Source of the DNA: Candidatus Magasanikiibacteriota bacterium
GTDB lineage: Bacteria; Patescibacteriota; Patescibacteriia; Magasanikbacterales; UBA922
Direction: 5' to 3'
Assembly (NCBI GenBank): GCA_021648085.1
Contig: JAKITS010000001.1
Coordinates: 324,948 to 388,947 of the forward strand
DNA length: 64,000 nucleotides
Shown here: positions 47,850 through 55,397 of the stretch, in pieces
Position numbering within the stretch: the first letter of the stretch is position 1
Layout of the letters: each line of letters opens with the position of its first letter
The notes under the pieces: generated by a model
Told to the model about the DNA's origin: nothing
The model's database searches: none
Seen by the model: only the letters and a program-made list of their open reading frames with translations
Translations under genes and position numbers: made by a program

Positions 47850-48416
47850 TTATTTCCTCAAACTAAGTTCATAATTTACTTGCTCCAACTTTCTCACAGC
47901 ATTTTTTGCCTGATCTAATTTATTACGAAGATAACTAGTCAAATTAAATTCTATTAACTCTCCAACTACTTCCTGAGCAGTCTCAACACATCGCTCAACC
48001 ATTTCAAAATCTCTTTTAGTCGCAAACTTCACAGCATACCGCAAAAGCTCTCCTGGTACATCACAAAGACCTGCAATGTAAACATCGTCTGGAACATCCA
48101 ATTGAATTCTTCCAAAATCTACTCCATTTATAAAATCAAAGAATAAAGTAGCTTCTACAAATTCCTCCATTCCAGCTTTATACGAACCCTGTCCTTCCAA
48201 AACATTTATATCAAACTTTTTCTGCAAATTTAACATTATATTTTCTGATTCTTTCATTTTATCTTCTGCGTCTTCTGCATCATCTCGATGAAGTGAGAAA
48301 ATAGCCCGCTTTGCCAAATGCAGTGCATCTCCAGATTGTTTAATTATCTCTCTTCTCTCTGTATCTTTCTTTGTCATTCTCTCTTTTTTCTCCTCTATAA
48401 AATTCTTATCTATCAT
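47850..48416 (-). CDS. hypothetical helical protein (two-repeat, PhoU/DUF47-like?)
   Basis: 188 aa. Overlaps the stop of the upstream P-type ATPase by about 10 nt, so is likely co-transcribed with it. Confidence 0.5.
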   Translation of the reverse strand: MIDKNFIEEKKERMTKKDTERREIIKQSGDALHLAKRAIFSLHRDDAEDAEDKMKESENIMLNLQKKFDINVLEGQGSYKAGMEEFVEATLFFDFINGVDFGRIQLDVPDDVYIAGLCDVPGELLRYAVKFATKRDFEMVERCVETAQEVVGELIEFNLTSYLRNKLDQAKNAVRKLEQVNYELSLRK

Positions 48417-51060
48417 ATTTTTTTCTTCTTCTAATTAAATAAATTGTTTTTATAAACTCTATCAAAAACACATTTACAAGTCCAAAAATTATTAAAATTG
48501 TCCATTCTTTTAGACCAATTGGGACTGTTTTTAACAAAATTTGAAGTGGTTTAAGATATACAGCAGCAATAAGCATCAACCATCCAAACAAGACAGCGAG
48601 ATTTAAATACATATTGCCAAAAGGATTTCTCTCCCAAACATGATGACGCATACTTCTTACAGAAAAAATATAAAGAAGTGAATCTACAGCTAAACCAAGA
48701 AATACTATTGTGCGGGTTAGTTGTATATCTCCTGTAGTTTTCCAAAAGTACAAAAATATTCCCAAAAGCATTACATTTGCAACAATACTTATAATACCAA
48801 TCATTGCCTTCATTTCACCATCAATTAATTTTTCATTTTTCCTCCTTGGTGGTTCTTTCATATTTTCCTTTTCTCCTTTATCAAAAGCTAGTGCCATGTT
48901 TGGAAATGAATCTTCAATAATATTTATCCACAAAATCTGTGCTGGTAAAATCGGCAGAGGTAAGCCAACCACCAAACTAACAGAAATAAGAGTAATCTCT
49001 GCAAAACTCCCAGAAAGTAGGTACAAAACAACTTTTTTTACATTTTGATAAATTGTCCTTCCTTCTTCTACAGAATAAACAATTGTACTAAAATTATCAT
49101 CTAGCAATATCAAATCTGAAACTTCTTTTGCCACATCTGTCCCAGAACCAAGTGAAACCCCAATATCAGCACCTTTTAATGCTGGTGTGTCATTTACTCC
49201 GTCTCCTGTCATTGCTACTATTTCTCCATTCAATTGCAATGCTTTTACTATTCTCATTTTATCTCCTGGCTCAACTCTTGCAAAAATATTTACCTTTTCA
49301 ATAACTTTTCTAAGTGTTTTGTCATCAATTTTCTGTAAATCATCTCCAGACAAAACACTCTCTTTTGATATATTTAAACCAATTTTTTCTCCTATCGCTC
49401 TAGCTGTTTCTATGTGGTCTCCTGTTATCATTATTACCCTTATCCCAGCTTCTTGTGTTATTTTAAAAGTTTCTATTACATCAGCTCTTATTGGGTCTGA
49501 AATACCAACCAAGCCAAGCAGTATTAAGTTTTTTGTATCTTTAAAACTTAACTCATCTTTATCTTTTGAAAAAGTTTTATAACCAACCGACAACACACGC
49601 AGGCCACGACTAGCCAATTCTTTATGCTTTTTCTCAAAAAACTTTCTTTTTTCTGCCGTCATTTTAAAAACCTTCTCTCCTTTTCTATAAAATTCTGCTT
49701 TTTTCAAAATTACCTCTGGTGCACCTTTTATATACATTGAAGTTTTACTTTTTTCAGACTGCAAAACAGCTATATATTTTGTCCTACTTTCAAAAGGTAG
49801 TTCGTCTAATCTATGATTTCTTTTTTCAAGCTTTACCTTGTCCAAACCTATTTTATGCCCAAAATGTAAAAATGCAGCGTCTGTTGTATCACCAATTACA
49901 GAAACTTTTTTACCAACACTTTTTTGCAAATATGCATCATTTGCAAAAATACCAGCAAGTAAAATAAAATAAGCCTCTTTATTTTTCTTTAAATTATATT
50001 CATTTTCTACATCAAAATCATTGTTAACCGTAGAAATCTGTGTCACAAACATTTTACCTTCTGTAAGTGTTCCTGTTTTGTCTGTACATATTACACTTAC
50101 AGAACCTAGAGTTTCTGCTGATACAAGCCTACGCACCAAAGCTTTTTTCTTTAAAATCTTTTGCATTCCAATGGCCAAAATTACCGTCAAAGATATTACC
50201 AAACCTTCTGGAATTGCTGCTACTGCCATTGCTACAGAAACCTCAAAAAGCTCAACTATTTCATACTCTGCAAAAGGACTAAAAATACCAAGCAATATAA
50301 CAGCAAAAGAAACTAATACAATTAAAATTCCAAGTGTTTTTGCCAATTTTCTAAGCTGTTCTTGAAGTGGAGTACCTACATCTTCTGTTTCTTTTACAAG
50401 TTGTGCTACTTTCCCTATTTCTGTATTTACACCAATAGATGTTACCACAACCCTGGCAACACCGCTCGCCACGATTGTTCCTTTGTGTACCATATTTCTT
50501 CTATCTGGAAGTCTTGTATCTTTTTCTATTTTTTCTATTGTCTTTTTTACTGGCTCCACCTCTCCAGTAAGTAATGCCTCGTTTACCTTTAAGTCTTTTT
50601 CTTGAATTATCCTTCCATCTGCCTGTATTTTATCTCCAGCATTCAAAATCAAAATATCACCAACTGTCACACTTTCACTATTTAAACTAACAACATTTCC
50701 ACCACGCAAAACAACTGCCTTATACTTTATCATTGAACCAAGTTTTTGAAGTGCTCTATTAGCTTTGTCTTCCTGCACAAAGCCAATCACGGCATTTACA
50801 AGTGTTGTAATAAAAATAATTATCATGTCTGGATAATCCCCCAAAAAACCACTAATCGTTCCCGCTACAACCAAAATTATAATCAACGGACTTTTCCATT
50901 GATTCAAGAAAATCTTAAATCTGGAGATTCTTTCTCCAGCTGTAGAAAATTTATTTTTACCGTATTTTGCAATTCTTTTTTTCGCCTCATTATTGGATAA
51001 ACCCTCTCTAGAACTGTTCAATTTCTTCAAAACATGTGCTATATTTTGTGCATGATGCAT
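48406..51060 (-). CDS. cation-transporting P-type ATPase (P2, Ca2+/Mg2+ type)
   Basis: DKTGTLT, TGDGVNDTPAL, and a 10-TM layout. 884 aa. Confidence 0.92.
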   Translation of the reverse strand: MHHAQNIAHVLKKLNSSREGLSNNEAKKRIAKYGKNKFSTAGERISRFKIFLNQWKSPLIIILVVAGTISGFLGDYPDMIIIFITTLVNAVIGFVQEDKANRALQKLGSMIKYKAVVLRGGNVVSLNSESVTVGDILILNAGDKIQADGRIIQEKDLKVNEALLTGEVEPVKKTIEKIEKDTRLPDRRNMVHKGTIVASGVARVVVTSIGVNTEIGKVAQLVKETEDVGTPLQEQLRKLAKTLGILIVLVSFAVILLGIFSPFAEYEIVELFEVSVAMAVAAIPEGLVISLTVILAIGMQKILKKKALVRRLVSAETLGSVSVICTDKTGTLTEGKMFVTQISTVNNDFDVENEYNLKKNKEAYFILLAGIFANDAYLQKSVGKKVSVIGDTTDAAFLHFGHKIGLDKVKLEKRNHRLDELPFESRTKYIAVLQSEKSKTSMYIKGAPEVILKKAEFYRKGEKVFKMTAEKRKFFEKKHKELASRGLRVLSVGYKTFSKDKDELSFKDTKNLILLGLVGISDPIRADVIETFKITQEAGIRVIMITGDHIETARAIGEKIGLNISKESVLSGDDLQKIDDKTLRKVIEKVNIFARVEPGDKMRIVKALQLNGEIVAMTGDGVNDTPALKGADIGVSLGSGTDVAKEVSDLILLDDNFSTIVYSVEEGRTIYQNVKKVVLYLLSGSFAEITLISVSLVVGLPLPILPAQILWINIIEDSFPNMALAFDKGEKENMKEPPRRKNEKLIDGEMKAMIGIISIVANVMLLGIFLYFWKTTGDIQLTRTIVFLGLAVDSLLYIFSVRSMRHHVWERNPFGNMYLNLAVLFGWLMLIAAVYLKPLQILLKTVPIGLKEWTILIIFGLVNVFLIEFIKTIYLIRRRKKYDR

Positions 51061-51165: not shown

Positions 51166-51238
51166 GATCTGGTAGCTCAGTAGGTAGAGCAGCAGCCTTT
51201 TAAGCTGATGGTCGTGGGTTCGATCCCCACCCAGGTCA
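51166..51238 (+). tRNA. tRNA-Lys(UUU)
   Basis: GATCTGG-TA-GCTCAGTAGGTAGAGC-A-GCAGC-CTTTTAA-GCTGA-TGGTC-GTGGGTTCGATCCCCAC-CCAGGTC-A. Confidence 0.88.
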
Positions 51239-51312
51239 CAAAAAAAACATCTTAATTGGTGTTTTTTTATTTTTAATGTAAAATAGATATAAATTCTACA
51301 AAGGAGGGAAAA

Positions 51313-51594
51313 ATGGAAGCTGTAAGTATTAGTTCTGCAATTAATTCAATCTTAATAATCATTGGAATTCTGTATTTTACAGGAATTGCTCTTTACACAT
51401 TTACAATATTAGTAGATAAATCAAAAAAGTTTACGCAAAGAAAAATATTAAAAGTAATGATTCTTTTTTCTATACCTTTATTTGTCATAACTTTTTCAAG
51501 TATCTCAATGTCAAGCTCTGGTGCAAGTATTTTTATATACTGTTCACTTTTTATCTTATCAATCTTTTTTGTAATAACTTGGCACAAAACATAG
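51313..51594 (+). CDS. small 3-TM membrane protein, cassette 1
   Basis: RBS AAGGAGGG. Followed by the terminator AAAGCACCTAAACTGGGTGCTTTT. Confidence 0.5.
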   Translation: MEAVSISSAINSILIIIGILYFTGIALYTFTILVDKSKKFTQRKILKVMILFSIPLFVITFSSISMSSSGASIFIYCSLFILSIFFVITWHKT

Positions 51595-51597
51595 TAA

Positions 51598-51624
51598 CAA
51601 AAAAGCACCTAAACTGGGTGCTTT
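51598..51624 (+). terminator. cassette terminator 1 (GCACCTAAACTGGGTGC hairpin)
   Basis: First of three near-identical hairpins (see 52028 and 52436). Confidence 0.7.
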
Positions 51625-51696
51625 TAATTTACAAAAATATAAAAAAATGGTAGTATGAAGTAGGTCTTATTTTTTTACACCCAAAAGGAGGTACAA

Positions 51697-52020
51697 ATGT
51701 CTGAATTTCTAAATTCAATTGTAAATATTAATACCTACTCACTATTGCACTTTTTAGTTATAATTACTTTTATATTTATTATGATTTCAATAATTTGTCA
51801 GGTTTTTTTGAAAAAATATTATTATATACTTGTTATTTCAGTTTGTTCTACACTCTTGTTTTCTGTGATTACTTTTTCCACAGGACTTTATTATATGATA
51901 TTCGACTTATCTTCAGAACTTAGTATTATGATATATGTAAGTTTAGTGCTTATTTTTATAAATATGATCATAAATGCTTTAAATATGAACTGGGTGTTAG
52001 ATAAATATAAAAAGGTATAG
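51697..52020 (+). CDS. small 3-TM membrane protein, cassette 2
   Basis: RBS AAAGGAGG. Own TTTACA/TAGTAT promoter. Followed by terminator copy 2. Confidence 0.5.
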   Translation: MSEFLNSIVNINTYSLLHFLVIITFIFIMISIICQVFLKKYYYILVISVCSTLLFSVITFSTGLYYMIFDLSSELSIMIYVSLVLIFINMIINALNMNWVLDKYKKV

Positions 52021-52027
52021 AAACAGT

Positions 52028-52053
52028 AAAGCACCTAAATTAGGTGCTTTTTT
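52028..52053 (+). terminator. cassette terminator 2 (GCACCTAAATTAGGTGC hairpin)
   Basis: Repeat of the terminator at 51598. Confidence 0.7.
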
Positions 52054-52055
52054 AA

Positions 52056-52083
52056 TTGACAAAATATCTAAAAAATGATAATG
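52056..52083 (+). promoter_or_regulatory. cassette promoter (TTGACA - 15/16 nt - GATAAT), fused to the preceding terminator repeat
   Basis: TTAATTGACA follows the terminator in copies 2 and 3; copy 1 has TTAATTTACA. Confidence 0.55.
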
Positions 52084-52122
52084 TAGTGTTTGAAAATAAA
52101 CCAAAAAAATAGAGGAATACGC

Positions 52123-52446
52123 GTGAATTATCTAGAAATTCTAAAAACACTTATAATGTTTAGTTTATTTTCAATAGCACTGCACATTATATTTTATATG
52201 TTTTTTGCAGGAAATCCCTATTCAACATTTGGTAAATCTAACGCAACTTTGGAAAAAACATCCACATCTAGCACTTTGACAATCACAGGACTTACAAGTT
52301 TAGCCTGGATTTATCTAGCTTTTGTAGAAAAAATAGAGATGAGTACAAAAATTACAGCAATTTGCTTTATTATAATCTGTATTTTTTTTGGAATTTTAAT
52401 ATCCCAATCTAAAACATTTAAAAGTGATAATCCACGAAGCACCTAA
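52123..52446 (+). CDS. small 3-TM membrane protein, cassette 3 (GTG start assumed)
   Basis: The ORF-track start at 52090 lies before the predicted -10 (52077-52082) and TSS. AGAGGAA RBS precedes in-frame GTG at 52123. Confidence 0.45.
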   Translation: MNYLEILKTLIMFSLFSIALHIIFYMFFAGNPYSTFGKSNATLEKTSTSSTLTITGLTSLAWIYLAFVEKIEMSTKITAICFIIICIFFGILISQSKTFKSDNPRST

Positions 52447-52462
52447 TTTAGGTGCTTTTTTA
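52436..52462 (+). terminator. cassette terminator 3 (GCACCTAATTTAGGTGC hairpin)
   Basis: Repeat of the terminator at 51598. Confidence 0.7.
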
Positions 52463-52523
52463 ATTGACAGCTTTGATAAAAAAATATTATGCTAAATAGA
52501 GTTCTTTAACAAAGGAGTTCCCA

Positions 52524-52820
52524 ATGAATGAGTTCATTTACAGATCGCTTTTTGTTGTTGCAGATTTTGCTTGCTTATTTACAATTGTTTTATTACTTCC
52601 ATATTATGTTTATCCAAGAATAAAACTCAAACTTATTCCACGAGCTAAAAATTTAAAAGCATTATCTTTTTCTTCTTTTACAACAGCATTTCTATATTTT
52701 ATATGTTTTCTAGAAAATTATACTTGGTATTTTCTACTTACTTCTATAATATTTATAGTCTCATCTATGTTTTTTATGGGGCAACTAATAGAATATAAAC
52801 GCAAAACAACGGGTAAATAA
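52524..52820 (+). CDS. small 3-TM membrane protein, cassette 4
   Basis: RBS AAAGGAG. Different terminator (CCCGTTGTTTTTTT). Confidence 0.5.
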   Translation: MNEFIYRSLFVVADFACLFTIVLLLPYYVYPRIKLKLIPRAKNLKALSFSSFTTAFLYFICFLENYTWYFLLTSIIFIVSSMFFMGQLIEYKRKTTGK

Positions 52821-52848
52821 CCCGTTGTTTTTTTAAATTATTTATGTT

Positions 52849-53919
52849 TTATCTTCCAAACAGCTCATCTATAATACTAATTATATCTTTTTCTTTAGCG
52901 ATTGGAAGTAAACTATTCAATCTCTCCCCCATTTCTTTCATTTTATTTTTATTTTGAAGTAAGTCTTTTATTACTTTTGCCAATTCTACTCCACTTATTA
53001 AATTATTATTAAAACTAAGTAAAGCACCGCTAGACGATAAAAATTTTACATTATCCTCTTGATGACCCTCGTTTGGAATTATAATTACTGCCTTTTTTAA
53101 TGCTGCAACCTCAGTTAAAGTTCCAAAACCTCCACGCGCTACCACCAATTCAGAAATAGCATAAGCGTCTTTCATTTCTTCTGTAAAAAAATCAAATTGA
53201 AAATAATTTTCAAACTCTTTAAATTTTTCATTATCCTCACTTTTATTTTTTCCAGTCAAATGAATTATCTGGCATATTCCTTTTAAGTGTGGCAAAGACT
53301 CTATTACAAGCCTGTTTATTTTTAAAGATCCGGTTCCACCTCCCATTACAAAAACAACTGGCAAGTCTGATTTTAATCCAAAACCTTGAAAAACTTTTTC
53401 TTTATTACCAATTAAAATTTCTTCTCGAACAGGGTTTCCAAGCCACTCAACTTTTTTTGCAGAAAAATTTACAACTCCCTCCTCCAAAGCTGTGGTTATT
53501 TTTATTGCAAAAAATGACATTATTTTATTGGAAAGCCCAACTTTTACATCTTGCTGATGAATCCAAGTTGGAACTCCCATAATCCACGCTATGAAATGCA
53601 CTGGAACAGAAACAAATCCGCCCGCAGAAATACACAAGTCTGGTTTTTCTTTCCACAAAATTTTGAATGACTGCAAAAAACCAAAACAAATTTTAAATAA
53701 ATCTGTAAAATTCCAAAAAGACAGATAACGGCGAAATTTTCCAGAAGAAATAGCAAGAAATGGTATGTTATATTTTTTAACCAACTCTTTTTCTGGTCCA
53801 GTCTTTGTGCCAACCCAAACAAATTCTATTTTCTTATCTTTTTTTTCTAACACTTCTTTTATTGCAAGCAGTGGTGTTACTGGACCAAGTGTCCCGCCAC
53901 CAGAAAAAATTATTTTCAT
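52849..53919 (-). CDS. murG: UDP-GlcNAc:lipid I N-acetylglucosaminyltransferase
   Basis: GGGTLGPVTP N-terminal motif and GT28 C-terminal domain. Overlaps ftsW by 4 nt. Confidence 0.88.
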   Translation of the reverse strand: MKIIFSGGGTLGPVTPLLAIKEVLEKKDKKIEFVWVGTKTGPEKELVKKYNIPFLAISSGKFRRYLSFWNFTDLFKICFGFLQSFKILWKEKPDLCISAGGFVSVPVHFIAWIMGVPTWIHQQDVKVGLSNKIMSFFAIKITTALEEGVVNFSAKKVEWLGNPVREEILIGNKEKVFQGFGLKSDLPVVFVMGGGTGSLKINRLVIESLPHLKGICQIIHLTGKNKSEDNEKFKEFENYFQFDFFTEEMKDAYAISELVVARGGFGTLTEVAALKKAVIIIPNEGHQEDNVKFLSSSGALLSFNNNLISGVELAKVIKDLLQNKNKMKEMGERLNSLLPIAKEKDIISIIDELFGR

Positions 53920-55031
53920 AAACGATATTTAATTCTATTTTTTGATATATTTATAAGTATTCCAACCGAAGCCATAGAAATCATTAGTGCTGTCCCTCCA
54001 TGGCTTACAAATGGAAGTGGCACACCAGTAAGTGGTACTAAACCAACCATTGCACCAATATTAAAAAAAGATTGGACTATAAACCATATCATTATTCCAA
54101 ATACAAGAAATTTTGCAAAATCGTCGTGAGACTGTTTTGCAAGTTTTACCATACGAAAGCTTATTGCTACAAGTAAAATTATAAAAGCGACAACAATAAC
54201 AAAGCCTAGTTCTTCTGCCATAATAGCAAAAATACTATCTGCGTGGACTTCTGGTAAATATTGAAATTTTTGCCTTGAGTGTCCAAGTCCAAAACCAAAC
54301 CAACCTCCAGAACCTATTGCCAAAAAAGCCTGATTTATATGATAGCCTATTCCTTGCGGATCTAACTCTGGATGCATAAAAGTCATAAGTCTTTCTGCTC
54401 TGTGTGGCACGAGAGCTATCATAAGAATAAATGCACCAACCCCAGCAGACAAAAGTACTCCTAAATGGGAATATTTTGCACCAGCCAAAAATAGCATACC
54501 AAAAATTACTGCAAAAAGTATACTAGCTGTTCCAATATCTGGCTGAAATACAATAAGTCCGATTGGTAAAATACCTAAAAATAGAGCTGTCAAAAACCCT
54601 GTTTTAAATTTTTCTATAGAACTACCCAAATCAGCCAGATAACTTGCAAAGAAGATGATAGTCCCTAATTTTACAATTTCTGCAGGCTGAAAAGAAAAAG
54701 ATCCGAACACAATCCAACTTTGTGCAGTAGTTCCAAAACTAGATCCCATTCCAGGAATTAAAACTAATATCACCAAAACCAAAGAGACAAAATAAATAAA
54801 CAAAGACATCTTTTTCAAAAAAGTATATGGTATTTTACTCAACAAAATAAAAAGGAATAATCCAGGTAAAAAACCATACAAAATTTGTCTTTTTAGAAAA
54901 AAATAACCATCTCCAAACCTCTCAAACCCAACAACAGAACTTGCAGAAGCTAGCAAAATTAATCCAAAAAAAATAAGAACCCCAAAATATGACAAAAGAA
55001 GATAGTCTACTTTAGATTTATCTATTGCCAT
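53916..55031 (-). CDS. ftsW: SEDS-family peptidoglycan glycosyltransferase FtsW/RodA
   Basis: 371 aa, 10 TM. Conserved loop including the conserved SEDS Asp (DIGTASIL). Confidence 0.88.
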   Translation of the reverse strand: MAIDKSKVDYLLLSYFGVLIFFGLILLASASSVVGFERFGDGYFFLKRQILYGFLPGLFLFILLSKIPYTFLKKMSLFIYFVSLVLVILVLIPGMGSSFGTTAQSWIVFGSFSFQPAEIVKLGTIIFFASYLADLGSSIEKFKTGFLTALFLGILPIGLIVFQPDIGTASILFAVIFGMLFLAGAKYSHLGVLLSAGVGAFILMIALVPHRAERLMTFMHPELDPQGIGYHINQAFLAIGSGGWFGFGLGHSRQKFQYLPEVHADSIFAIMAEELGFVIVVAFIILLVAISFRMVKLAKQSHDDFAKFLVFGIMIWFIVQSFFNIGAMVGLVPLTGVPLPFVSHGGTALMISMASVGILINISKNRIKYRL

Positions 55032-55034
55032 AAG

Positions 55035-55397
55035 CTAAAGATTCAAAAAAACTATCAATAATGTCGCCACTAGTAAAAAAACTTGGCAAATAAGATTTAC
55101 AGCATTCAATATGTACGCTATAAATTTATCTTTATGAAACAAAACCCAACCTAAAATAAAATTTATAATTAGGATAAAAATTCCTGTAATTGGTAAATAT
55201 AAAATATTCCACCACTCTCCTATTAAGTCTACACCAAATAATATGTTATAATGCAAAAAAATAGGATCTTGCTGTGGACCGAGAACATACAAAAGCCAAA
55301 ACCACATAAATATGTTTACTAGCAACGACAAAATAACCATTGATAATATAGCTGGTTGTTTTATATAAAGTTTTAATGGGTAAGTTGTTCTAGCCAT
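55035..55397 (-). CDS. hypothetical membrane protein (120 aa)
   Basis: 3-4 TM ORF upstream of ftsW. Confidence 0.45.
   Translation of the reverse strand: MARTTYPLKLYIKQPAILSMVILSLLVNIFMWFWLLYVLGPQQDPIFLHYNILFGVDLIGEWWNILYLPITGIFILIINFILGWVLFHKDKFIAYILNAVNLICQVFLLVATLLIVFLNL

Follow-up and report, generated by a model that had tools for sequence, protein, structure and literature searches.

How does it come about that four neighboring genes differ almost throughout their coding parts while the short segments punctuating them stay nearly identical? This question is raised by a locus directly downstream of a tRNA-Lys gene in an uncultured Candidatus Magasanikbacteria bacterium, in a stretch of 64,000 nucleotides (nt) that we analyzed as a whole (hereafter the window). 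A first-pass annotation of this DNA had described four same-strand genes for small membrane proteins at this place, here labeled A, B, C and D, and had likened them to arrays of immunity or superinfection-exclusion proteins and to other diversifying cassette islands. With a probability of roughly 0.65, our analysis favors a reading of the locus as a lineage-specific set of tandem duplicates, namely fast-evolving and dispensable small membrane-protein genes, and not as a mobile cassette system. The genes concerned, deposited on a contig of 984,181 bp, are:

51166-51239, + strand: tRNA-Lys(UUU) (ARAGORN; Rfam tRNA, 69.6 bits)
51313-51594, + strand: gene A, 93 amino acids (aa), three predicted transmembrane helices; L3J07_01895, hypothetical protein; ribosome-binding site aaaggaggg
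51697-52020, + strand: gene B, 107 aa, three predicted transmembrane helices; L3J07_01900, hypothetical protein
52123-52446, + strand: gene C, 107 aa, GTG start, three predicted transmembrane helices; L3J07_01905, hypothetical protein
52524-52820, + strand: gene D, 98 aa, three predicted transmembrane helices; L3J07_01910, hypothetical protein

The tRNA and the four open reading frames (ORFs) were confirmed as first described, except that gene C is shorter than the 118 aa given initially: the mechanical ORF begins at TTG 52090, but the GTG at 52123, which has the Shine-Dalgarno sequence agaggaa and yields 107 aa, agrees with the deposited annotation. Ribosome-binding sites are present 5-8 nt 5' of all four start codons (AAAGGAGGG for A, AAAGGAGGT for B, AGAGGAA for C and AAAGGAGTT for D), as had been claimed, but they are not equally strong, that of C being the weakest. 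A 19-residue Kyte-Doolittle scan recovered three hydrophobic segments in each protein, in line with the three helices originally proposed. Loop 1 and the C-terminal tail hold most of the lysine and arginine residues. Hardly any occur in the N-terminus or, for A, B and D, in loop 2, which in C contains two lysines. Applied to this distribution, the positive-inside rule predicts that the N-terminus lies outside and the C-terminus inside. An AlphaFold2 model of C, computed from a three-row alignment, places helices at residues 3-28, 43-68 and 72-102, albeit at low confidence (predicted local distance difference test score 56).

The segments between these genes are built around a repeated hairpin, GCACCTAA-N-TTAGGTGC, whose three copies stand at 51603, 52029 and 52437 and are each accompanied by a T-run and a TTGACA or TTTACA hexamer. 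Their consensus reads AAGCACCTAA-N-TTRGGTGC, followed by the T-run and then by AATT(G/T)ACA. This pattern has no other occurrence in the window and 0.00 matches are expected in shuffled sequence; moreover, the stem GCACCTA common to the three copies is found in no other terminator between 40 and 60 kb, the others using unrelated stems. The first-pass observation of a terminator hairpin fused to the next -35 element is therefore borne out, and the modules are repeated by descent rather than by chance. The near-identical module, put at 45 nt initially, is real and present in three copies, but only about 33 nt are strictly common to the copies: TTTTTT and TTGACA in B-C and C-D correspond to TTTT and TTTACA in A-B, and the C-D copy differs in a loop base. 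The hairpins and modules of the locus are:

51241-51268, + strand: intrinsic terminator hairpin of tRNA-Lys, AACATC...GGTGTT with T-run; -9.8 kcal/mol, z -5.1
51601-51656, + strand: module 1, hairpin of A at 51601-51625, T-run, -35 TTTACA at 51628-51633, TGG-TAGTAT ending at 51656; -13.5 kcal/mol, z -4.7
52028-52084, + strand: module 2, hairpin of B at 52028-52050, T-run, -35 TTGACA at 52056-52061, TGA-TAATGT at 52076-52084; -13.0 kcal/mol
52436-52493, + strand: module 3, hairpin of C at 52436-52458, T-run, -35 TTGACA at 52464-52469, -10 TATGCT at 52488-52493; -12.9 kcal/mol, z -5.3
52803-52831, no strand assigned: two-way terminator hairpin common to D and the convergent murG, unlike the module hairpins; -16.2 kcal/mol

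Related loci were collected by a MurG scan of species-representative genomes, by a scan of metagenome contigs with C, and from the contig of P0005, a 102-aa orthologue of C. Four close loci were obtained in this way:

L011: tRNA-Lys, terminator and promoter, C, terminator, 163 bp, murG; no D; MurG 78% identical
L007: ATPase, tRNA-Lys, C, module, D cut at about codon 47 by an IS30-like element; ATPase 79% identical and in the same position
L001 and L008: gene for a Wzx/MurJ-like flippase, C, module, D with a 2-nt deletion and an in-frame stop, murG; MurG 78% identical

The four genes are hence not a set of conserved housekeeping genes, since the window and its relatives have one, two or four of them; the array is shorter in all four closest relatives and is replaced by unrelated genes in distant ones. 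C is the only array gene present in all four relatives, its orthologues being 38-45% identical (L001/L008, L007 and L011). Neither A nor B occurs at L001, L007, L008 or L011, and both are restricted to the window genome. Distances for MurG, FtsW and C give the tree (window, (L011, (L001, L007))), which implies that D was ancestral and was then lost once and broken twice independently. At L007 (8545-8670) D is broken after about codon 47, where a new ORF starts MNKYKRLSLAEREEISRMLA and matches the IS30-type HTH_38 domain (E-value 5.6e-5), the contig ending 70 nt further on. In L001 (9077-9400, - strand) a hydrophobic ORF of 107 aa runs unbroken, in the wrong frame, through the frameshifted D; evidently T-rich sequence in these genomes readily gives rise to membrane-protein-like ORFs, which calls for caution with orphan calls of small membrane proteins.

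Upstream of C, the identity of L001 and L008 with L007 begins at the 3' arm of the tRNA-Lys terminator (tatggtgttttttatttaca...; L001 9880-9900 in the minus-strand view, L007 7905-7945), and the start codon of the divergent flippase gene stands directly before this arm. This places a rearrangement breakpoint inside the loop of the tRNA terminator, as seen in two independent assemblies. As a separate observation, the place that D occupies elsewhere holds, in L011 (520-640), imperfect repeats of about 25-30 nt (...GAAGCGATACATCAAAGTTGAAC GAAGTGAAACGATACATCAAATCGAATG...) that run into the 3' end of murG, and the murG of L011 is two codons longer at this end.

With these relatives at hand, the nature of the hairpins could be examined across paralogous and orthologous copies. 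The module hairpins are perfect stems of 9-10 bp containing G+C, with a loop of 3-4 nt and a U-run. On RNA folding, the three copies in the window reach -12.9 to -13.5 kcal/mol (z -4.1 to -5.3) with a run of T4-T6, and all folded hairpins lie between -9.8 and -16.2 kcal/mol (z -3.3 to -5.8), each followed by a U-run, the exception being the tRNA terminator of L011 (-6.9 kcal/mol, z -2.4). Stop codons are situated 0-13 nt upstream of the stem or within the hairpin itself; gene C ends (52444-52446) inside its terminator loop, and the final six codons of D (52803-52820) make up the 5' arm of the hairpin common to D and murG, the pairing of which is kept in L001 by a compensatory change from GGGT/ACCC to GAGC/GCTC. 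The orthologues of the C-D module in L001, L007 and L011 also carry compensatory stem changes. Over nine paralogous and orthologous hairpins, 95% of the cells are paired and 4 of the 10 pairs show double changes (A-U to G-C at two positions); the covariation score and paired fraction were reached by none of 500 shuffles, and slid registers are 32-67% paired. G-U intermediates are seen in L001, L011 and the tRNA terminator of the window, and these wobbles suggest that selection acts on the RNA and not on a DNA palindrome.

This last point bears on the idea that the palindromes are mainly operator sites for a dimeric regulator, placed upstream of the -35 elements and co-regulating B, C and D. 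Such a scheme would account for the identity of the stems within this genome; in its favor, the three near-identical perfect palindromes all stand 5 nt from the -35, and they resemble one another more than they resemble their orthologue. We nevertheless hold it to be decidedly unlikely, because a T-run after each palindrome, directly behind a stop codon, is the layout of an intrinsic terminator, because G-U wobble pairing matters for RNA only, because the same hairpin is a plain terminator-like element in two unrelated viral contigs, and because Pfam analysis of the neighboring genes gave no regulator. To judge from their sequence, the hairpins are intrinsic terminators fused to the promoter of the next gene, with actual activity presumed. 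The two viral contigs just mentioned come from IMG/VR and have the hairpin sequence AAAGCACCTAAWTTAGGTGCTTTT once each (L009, 2942-2964; L010, 2499-2523), with a T-run and in an intergenic-looking position. The stem alone is hence not diagnostic of the array locus; a reading of these two matches as the sign of a mobile element was rejected, as they are plain terminator-like hairpins in unrelated contigs. An Rfam scan at E-values up to 1 returned the tRNA and otherwise sub-threshold noise from the hairpins.

After each T-run an A-rich spacer of 17-18 nt separates the -35 from the -10 element. The putative promoter of B matches the consensus at 9/12 positions and has the TG extension, that of C combines TTGACA, 17 nt and TGA-TAATGT, that of D matches at 10/12, and the same elements are kept in L001, L007 and L011. 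The notion that each gene has its own promoter is thus well founded for B, C and D but not for A, which has a poor -35 hexamer only, as part of a weak promoter candidate behind the weaker terminator of the tRNA; A may be read through from tRNA-Lys. Further alignment showed that the tRNA-Lys terminators (AACAYC...GGTGTT) and all intergenic modules correspond over the hairpin, T-run, -35, A-rich spacer and TGn -10, and the tRNA-Lys terminator of the window, which shares this design, also aligns with those of L007 and L011. What had been called conserved punctuation consists of ordinary transcription signals, built like the tRNA-Lys terminator of the window and its relatives.

The degree of identity between modules, counted on the alignments, is informative as to their history. 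Between B-C and C-D the hairpin-plus-35 segments are about 93% identical, and between the C-D module of the window and its L007 orthologue the figure is only about 70%; beginning with the -10 element, it is the orthologous modules that are the more alike pair. In addition, the B-C promoter of the window (AATTGACAAAATATCTAAAAAATGATAATGT) matches the promoter between tRNA and C in L011 (AATTGACAAAATGATTTAAAAATGTTAATAT), and the corresponding promoter of L007 aligns as well. The higher identity within the genome than to the orthologue suggests duplication or gene conversion inside the window genome, and the module pattern together with the promoter match suggests that a unit was copied, or its hairpin homogenized, in this genome and that array length changes at the modules.

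In the explanation that we favor, namely a duplicated lineage-specific array, each unit would be an insulated one-gene affair comprising a sigma-70-type promoter (mostly with a TGn extended -10), a Shine-Dalgarno site, an ORF of about 100 codons and an intrinsic terminator. The T-run of the terminator would pass straight into the next -35, such that a stretch of about 33 nt ends one transcript and helps to start the next, and the same junction design is present between tRNA-Lys and the first small gene in the window and its relatives. We infer that the array most likely grew beside tRNA-Lys by duplication of this unit. The repeated modules would be an obvious substrate for unequal recombination or slippage, leading to expansion and contraction of the array, and such events would account for the occurrence of one, two and four genes across the relatives. 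In these respects the locus resembles the tandem lineage-specific paralogue arrays that evolve by birth and death, in which same-strand neighbors of equal size have common regulatory sequence, varying copy number, pseudogenes and accelerated change with a ratio of non-synonymous to synonymous rates (dN/dS, omega) below 1; it differs in that the coding parts have diverged almost beyond detection, in that the 33-nt terminator-plus-35 segment is about 93% identical, and in its restriction to a handful of genomes. Back-to-back intrinsic terminators and sigma-70 promoters are likewise of an ordinary kind, and the present ones conform to it in their stem of 9-10 bp, loop of 3-4 nt, U-run, TTGACA/TTTACA, spacer of 17-18 nt and TGn-type -10; unusual here are the threefold use of one stem and its likeness to the neighboring tRNA terminator.

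To assess the mode of evolution, dN/dS was estimated for C, the one array gene with full-length orthologues. C has a dN of 0.26-0.45 and an omega of 0.23-0.44, the ratios being approximate as dS is near saturation in the comparisons with the window, and MurG and FtsW have a dN of 0.04-0.15 and an omega of 0.06-0.17. C thus evolves about three times faster than its neighbors at non-synonymous sites, and its omega below 1 indicates relaxed purifying selection and not gene-wide positive or diversifying selection. Of the diversifying cassette island first suggested, gene gain and loss among relatives stands; nothing points to a mobile or recombinase-driven system, and the dN/dS of 0.23-0.44 does not point to a diversifying one.

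These rates also bear on whether the locus is a diversifying immunity or superinfection-exclusion array, in which the proteins, each under its own promoter, would counter different membrane-targeting toxins or phages. The small, multi-pass nature of the proteins, their very fast divergence and the separate promoters fit this picture, as does a copy number that varies among close relatives with D lost or broken independently three times. Bacteria of the Candidate Phyla Radiation (CPR) are thought to live attached to other cells, and a conflict at the cell surface is plausible in such a group. Yet the omega of C does not exceed 1, the repeated decay of D suggests dispensability rather than an arms race, no match was found in PADLOC, PHROGs, Pfam, NCBIfam, 50,697 phage records or IMG/VR, and there is no bacteriocin, transporter, phage or defence gene within at least 10 kb. 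The orphan bacteriocin-immunity clusters of Firmicutes are comparable in having several small multi-helix membrane proteins in a row that are poorly conserved and strain-variable, but here there is no bacteriocin precursor, C39/ABC exporter, regulatory gene or immunity-family match, and the genes are predicted to be transcribed singly. The likeness to immunity or exclusion arrays drawn initially is thus not upheld, and we consider this explanation unlikely, though it is worth keeping in view. A related conception, to which we attach a low probability, would combine both ideas in a recombinase-free cassette system, in which the module itself is the recombination substrate by which fast-evolving three-helix proteins of immunity, exclusion or the host interface are gained, lost and reshuffled, to the benefit of cells with an attached way of life.

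Similarity among the proteins themselves was examined as well. A-D are alike in size and in the layout of helices and charges, and each unit has homologous flanking and regulatory sequence, as established from the repeat family and the module alignments. C and D are collinearly similar, with Smith-Waterman z-scores of 4.4-4.9 (p 0.001-0.003) that stand above both full and layout-preserving shuffles; A and B are collinear with marginal scores (z 2.4-3.3, p 0.009-0.021). These were the only pairs above shuffles, in agreement with the little identity noted earlier, and comparison of the C family with A or B by hhalign gave nothing.

Several results weigh against a duplicated array of this kind. 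The A-B similarity is lost after correction for 15 tests, no significant collinear match links A or B to C or D, these window pairs being at background, and hhalign of the C family against D attains a P of 0.05 only. A Smith-Waterman z of about 5 between B and the C of L011 was rejected as a sign of paralogy, being non-collinear and having an E-value of 0.17 in composition-adjusted BLASTP. Paralogy of all four proteins is accordingly not demonstrated. As no outgroup carries the family, A and B may have been gained on the branch to the window or lost on that of its sister group. Part of the module similarity (the T-run, TTGACA and TGn-TAnnnT) could stem from convergence on consensus signals, and the region has 15 promoter-like sites where 14.0 are expected from shuffles, so that the promoter calls depend on position and on conservation in orthologous loci. 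Finally, the codon-model coding test discriminates poorly, one antisense ORF having scored as high as real ORFs, and the case for A and B being coding consists of ORF length, ribosome-binding site, helix pattern and a weak codon model, with no orthologues. The antisense ORFs at 51393-51608, 51891-52034 and 52311-52442 are artefacts, all of them beginning at a GTG in the reverse-complemented hairpin arm GGTGC.

A and B might also not code for proteins at all but be chance or decaying ORFs in duplicated T-rich sequence, with only C, and in this genome D, functional. The lack of orthologues, the weakness of the codon test and the long hydrophobic ORF persisting in the frameshifted D of L001 all speak for this. 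However, frames of 93 and 107 codons are improbable at about 25% GC (the base composition suggests about 2e-4 per start), strong AAAGGAGG sites precede both at suitable spacing, and both show the three-helix layout with positive charges seen in C and D and lie between a putative promoter and a terminator. We accordingly regard non-coding A and B as rather improbable, and retain all four genes in the duplicated array.

Beyond the locus itself, the proteins have hardly any relatives. Searches of Pfam, NCBIfam, PHROGs and PADLOC with A-D gave no family match and nothing below an E-value of about 0.07, with no PHROG below 0.1. Word-index searches of 5.8 billion proteins with C, B and the four-protein alignment returned only A-D themselves, the product of gene A being the only member of its protein cluster, and a HMMER search with a C+D profile against all 1.84 billion representative proteins recovered only C, D and P0005. 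No record corresponded exactly to A, B, C or MurG. Nor did tblastn with A-D yield a match in the 50,697 phage records, scans of IMG/VR with the C and A+B alignments a relative, or blastn of the whole array a match among plasmids. A-D would thus seem to be small integral membrane proteins of accessory nature, fast-evolving and with no detectable relatives outside a small clade; we regard them as probable non-enzymatic envelope proteins with which the cell can dispense.

Given their size, one may ask if they are holin-like or otherwise membrane-damaging, that is, products of lysis or toxin genes. With 93-107 aa, three helices, a predicted N-out/C-in orientation and a basic C-terminal tail they recall class I holins, of which lambda S is an example with these same features and comparable size; its S105 form has about 100 aa. 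Here, though, the setting is a core chromosomal region with four such genes and no phage or lysis cassette; the best PHROG holin match has an E-value of 0.97, there is no dual-start motif and no endolysin, spanin, prophage or antitoxin nearby, and four constitutive-looking promoters on lethal genes would be odd. This makes a membrane-damaging role very unlikely. The tandem type I toxin-antitoxin repeats of E. coli (Ldr/Rdl and Ibs/Sib) offer another parallel, in that repeats of about 400-500 bp each encode a hydrophobic protein with its own promoter and terminator. Their toxins, however, are single-helix proteins of less than 60 aa that come with an antisense RNA, whereas the present proteins have about 100 aa and three helices, and neither an antisense promoter nor a known RNA family (Rfam) was seen.

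The array is set among core genes of cell envelope and division. Its immediate flanks are:

48406-51060, - strand: P-type cation ATPase, left flank outside the array, divergent from tRNA-Lys (Pfam E1-E2_ATPase 1.8e-45, Cation_ATPase_N/C)
52849-53919, - strand: murG, right flank outside the array, convergent with it (Pfam Glyco_transf_28 N- and C-terminal domains)
53916-55031, - strand: ftsW, following murG (Pfam FTSW_RODA_SPOVE)

The wider neighbors are division, cell-wall and translation genes, comprising FtsEX, a PpiC/SurA-type protein, DivIC, a Mur ligase, RlmH, L27, DsbA and Lgt (Pfam). Over positions 1-64000 of the window the - strand carries nearly all long ORFs; few genes are on the + strand, among them tRNA-Lys and those of the array, and the + strand GC skew is strongly negative around the array. 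A translin-family protein is encoded at 47850-48416 (- strand; Pfam Translin 1.6e-20), adjoining the ATPase/tRNA-Lys region; translin is known mainly from eukaryotes and archaea. A translin gene occupies the same place in the more distant locus L005 (14696-15310; Pfam Translin 6.1e-17), and an ORF of equal length stands there in L007 (4549-5115). Directly upstream of ftsW lies a gene for a 120-aa protein with no family match (55035-55397, - strand), whose position and length are kept in L011 (2806-3168).

This setting invites the thought that the small proteins are accessory subunits or regulators of neighboring membrane machinery, either the P-type ATPase or MurG/FtsW, in analogy to small membrane proteins by which transporters are tuned. 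In the window the ATPase-tRNA-Lys pair and murG-ftsW enclose C, which adjoins one or both flanks in L007 and L011, and the wider region is a cluster for cell division and cell wall. On the other hand, the C of L001 and L008 still looks intact after a rearrangement parted it from the ATPase, distant relatives keep the ATPase-tRNA-Lys pair and murG-ftsW with no such small proteins, and the array genes would be transcribed apart from their neighbors, convergently or divergently. Small transporter regulators usually have one helix and fewer than 50 aa, which is a further mismatch. We therefore give this proposal little credence and return to the duplicated array of dispensable genes.

The distant relatives, with MurG 50-57% identical, keep tRNA-Lys and murG-ftsW in the same relative places but have 4-6 kb of unrelated genes between them:

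L002, 9063-15082: murG/tRNA-Lys interval with ImpB/UmuC-like polymerase, S24 peptidase and radical S-adenosylmethionine enzyme
L004, 9080-13327: murG/tRNA-Lys interval with IS200-like transposase, HD protein and phosphorylase
L005, 9077-14685: murG/tRNA-Lys interval with large secreted proteins and rhamnose genes

The interval from tRNA-Lys to murG is a variable spot at two evolutionary depths in Magasanikbacteria-like genomes. Its position directly 3' of a tRNA, the other cargo carried there by distant relatives, including the IS200-like transposase and the ImpB/S24 genes, and a GC content of 24-29% in the array against about 30-37% in the flanks could be taken as signs of an island acquired horizontally at tRNA-Lys, or of an array of integron-like cassettes. 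The lower GC, though, is explained equally well by the T-rich codons of hydrophobic membrane proteins. As stated from the outset, neither an integrase nor attC-like sites are present: Pfam analysis of all neighbors from about 38.5 to 64 kb yielded no integrase, phage, bacteriocin, defence or mobility gene, and the 23-nt 3' end of tRNA-Lys has no second copy in the window at up to three mismatches. Integron cassettes do resemble the locus in being short one-gene units parted by a repeated foldable element, but the element here is a perfect terminator hairpin with a U-run and not an imperfect, bulged attC, there is no IntI or attI, and the units carry promoter elements of their own, which cassettes normally do not have. 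The proteins are, besides, found only in this small clade. Acquisition as an island or as integron-like cassettes is consequently most improbable.

The duplicated array, if correctly understood, would show in a small and clean case new membrane proteins arising and being discarded in a reduced CPR genome, with the coding part drifting almost beyond recognition and the 33-nt junction staying nearly identical. The four proteins join a large and unexplored pool of orphan small membrane proteins in CPR bacteria. Should they prove to be immunity or host-interface factors, the locus would be of greater interest; on the present results it shows an ordinary evolutionary pattern in an unusual organism.

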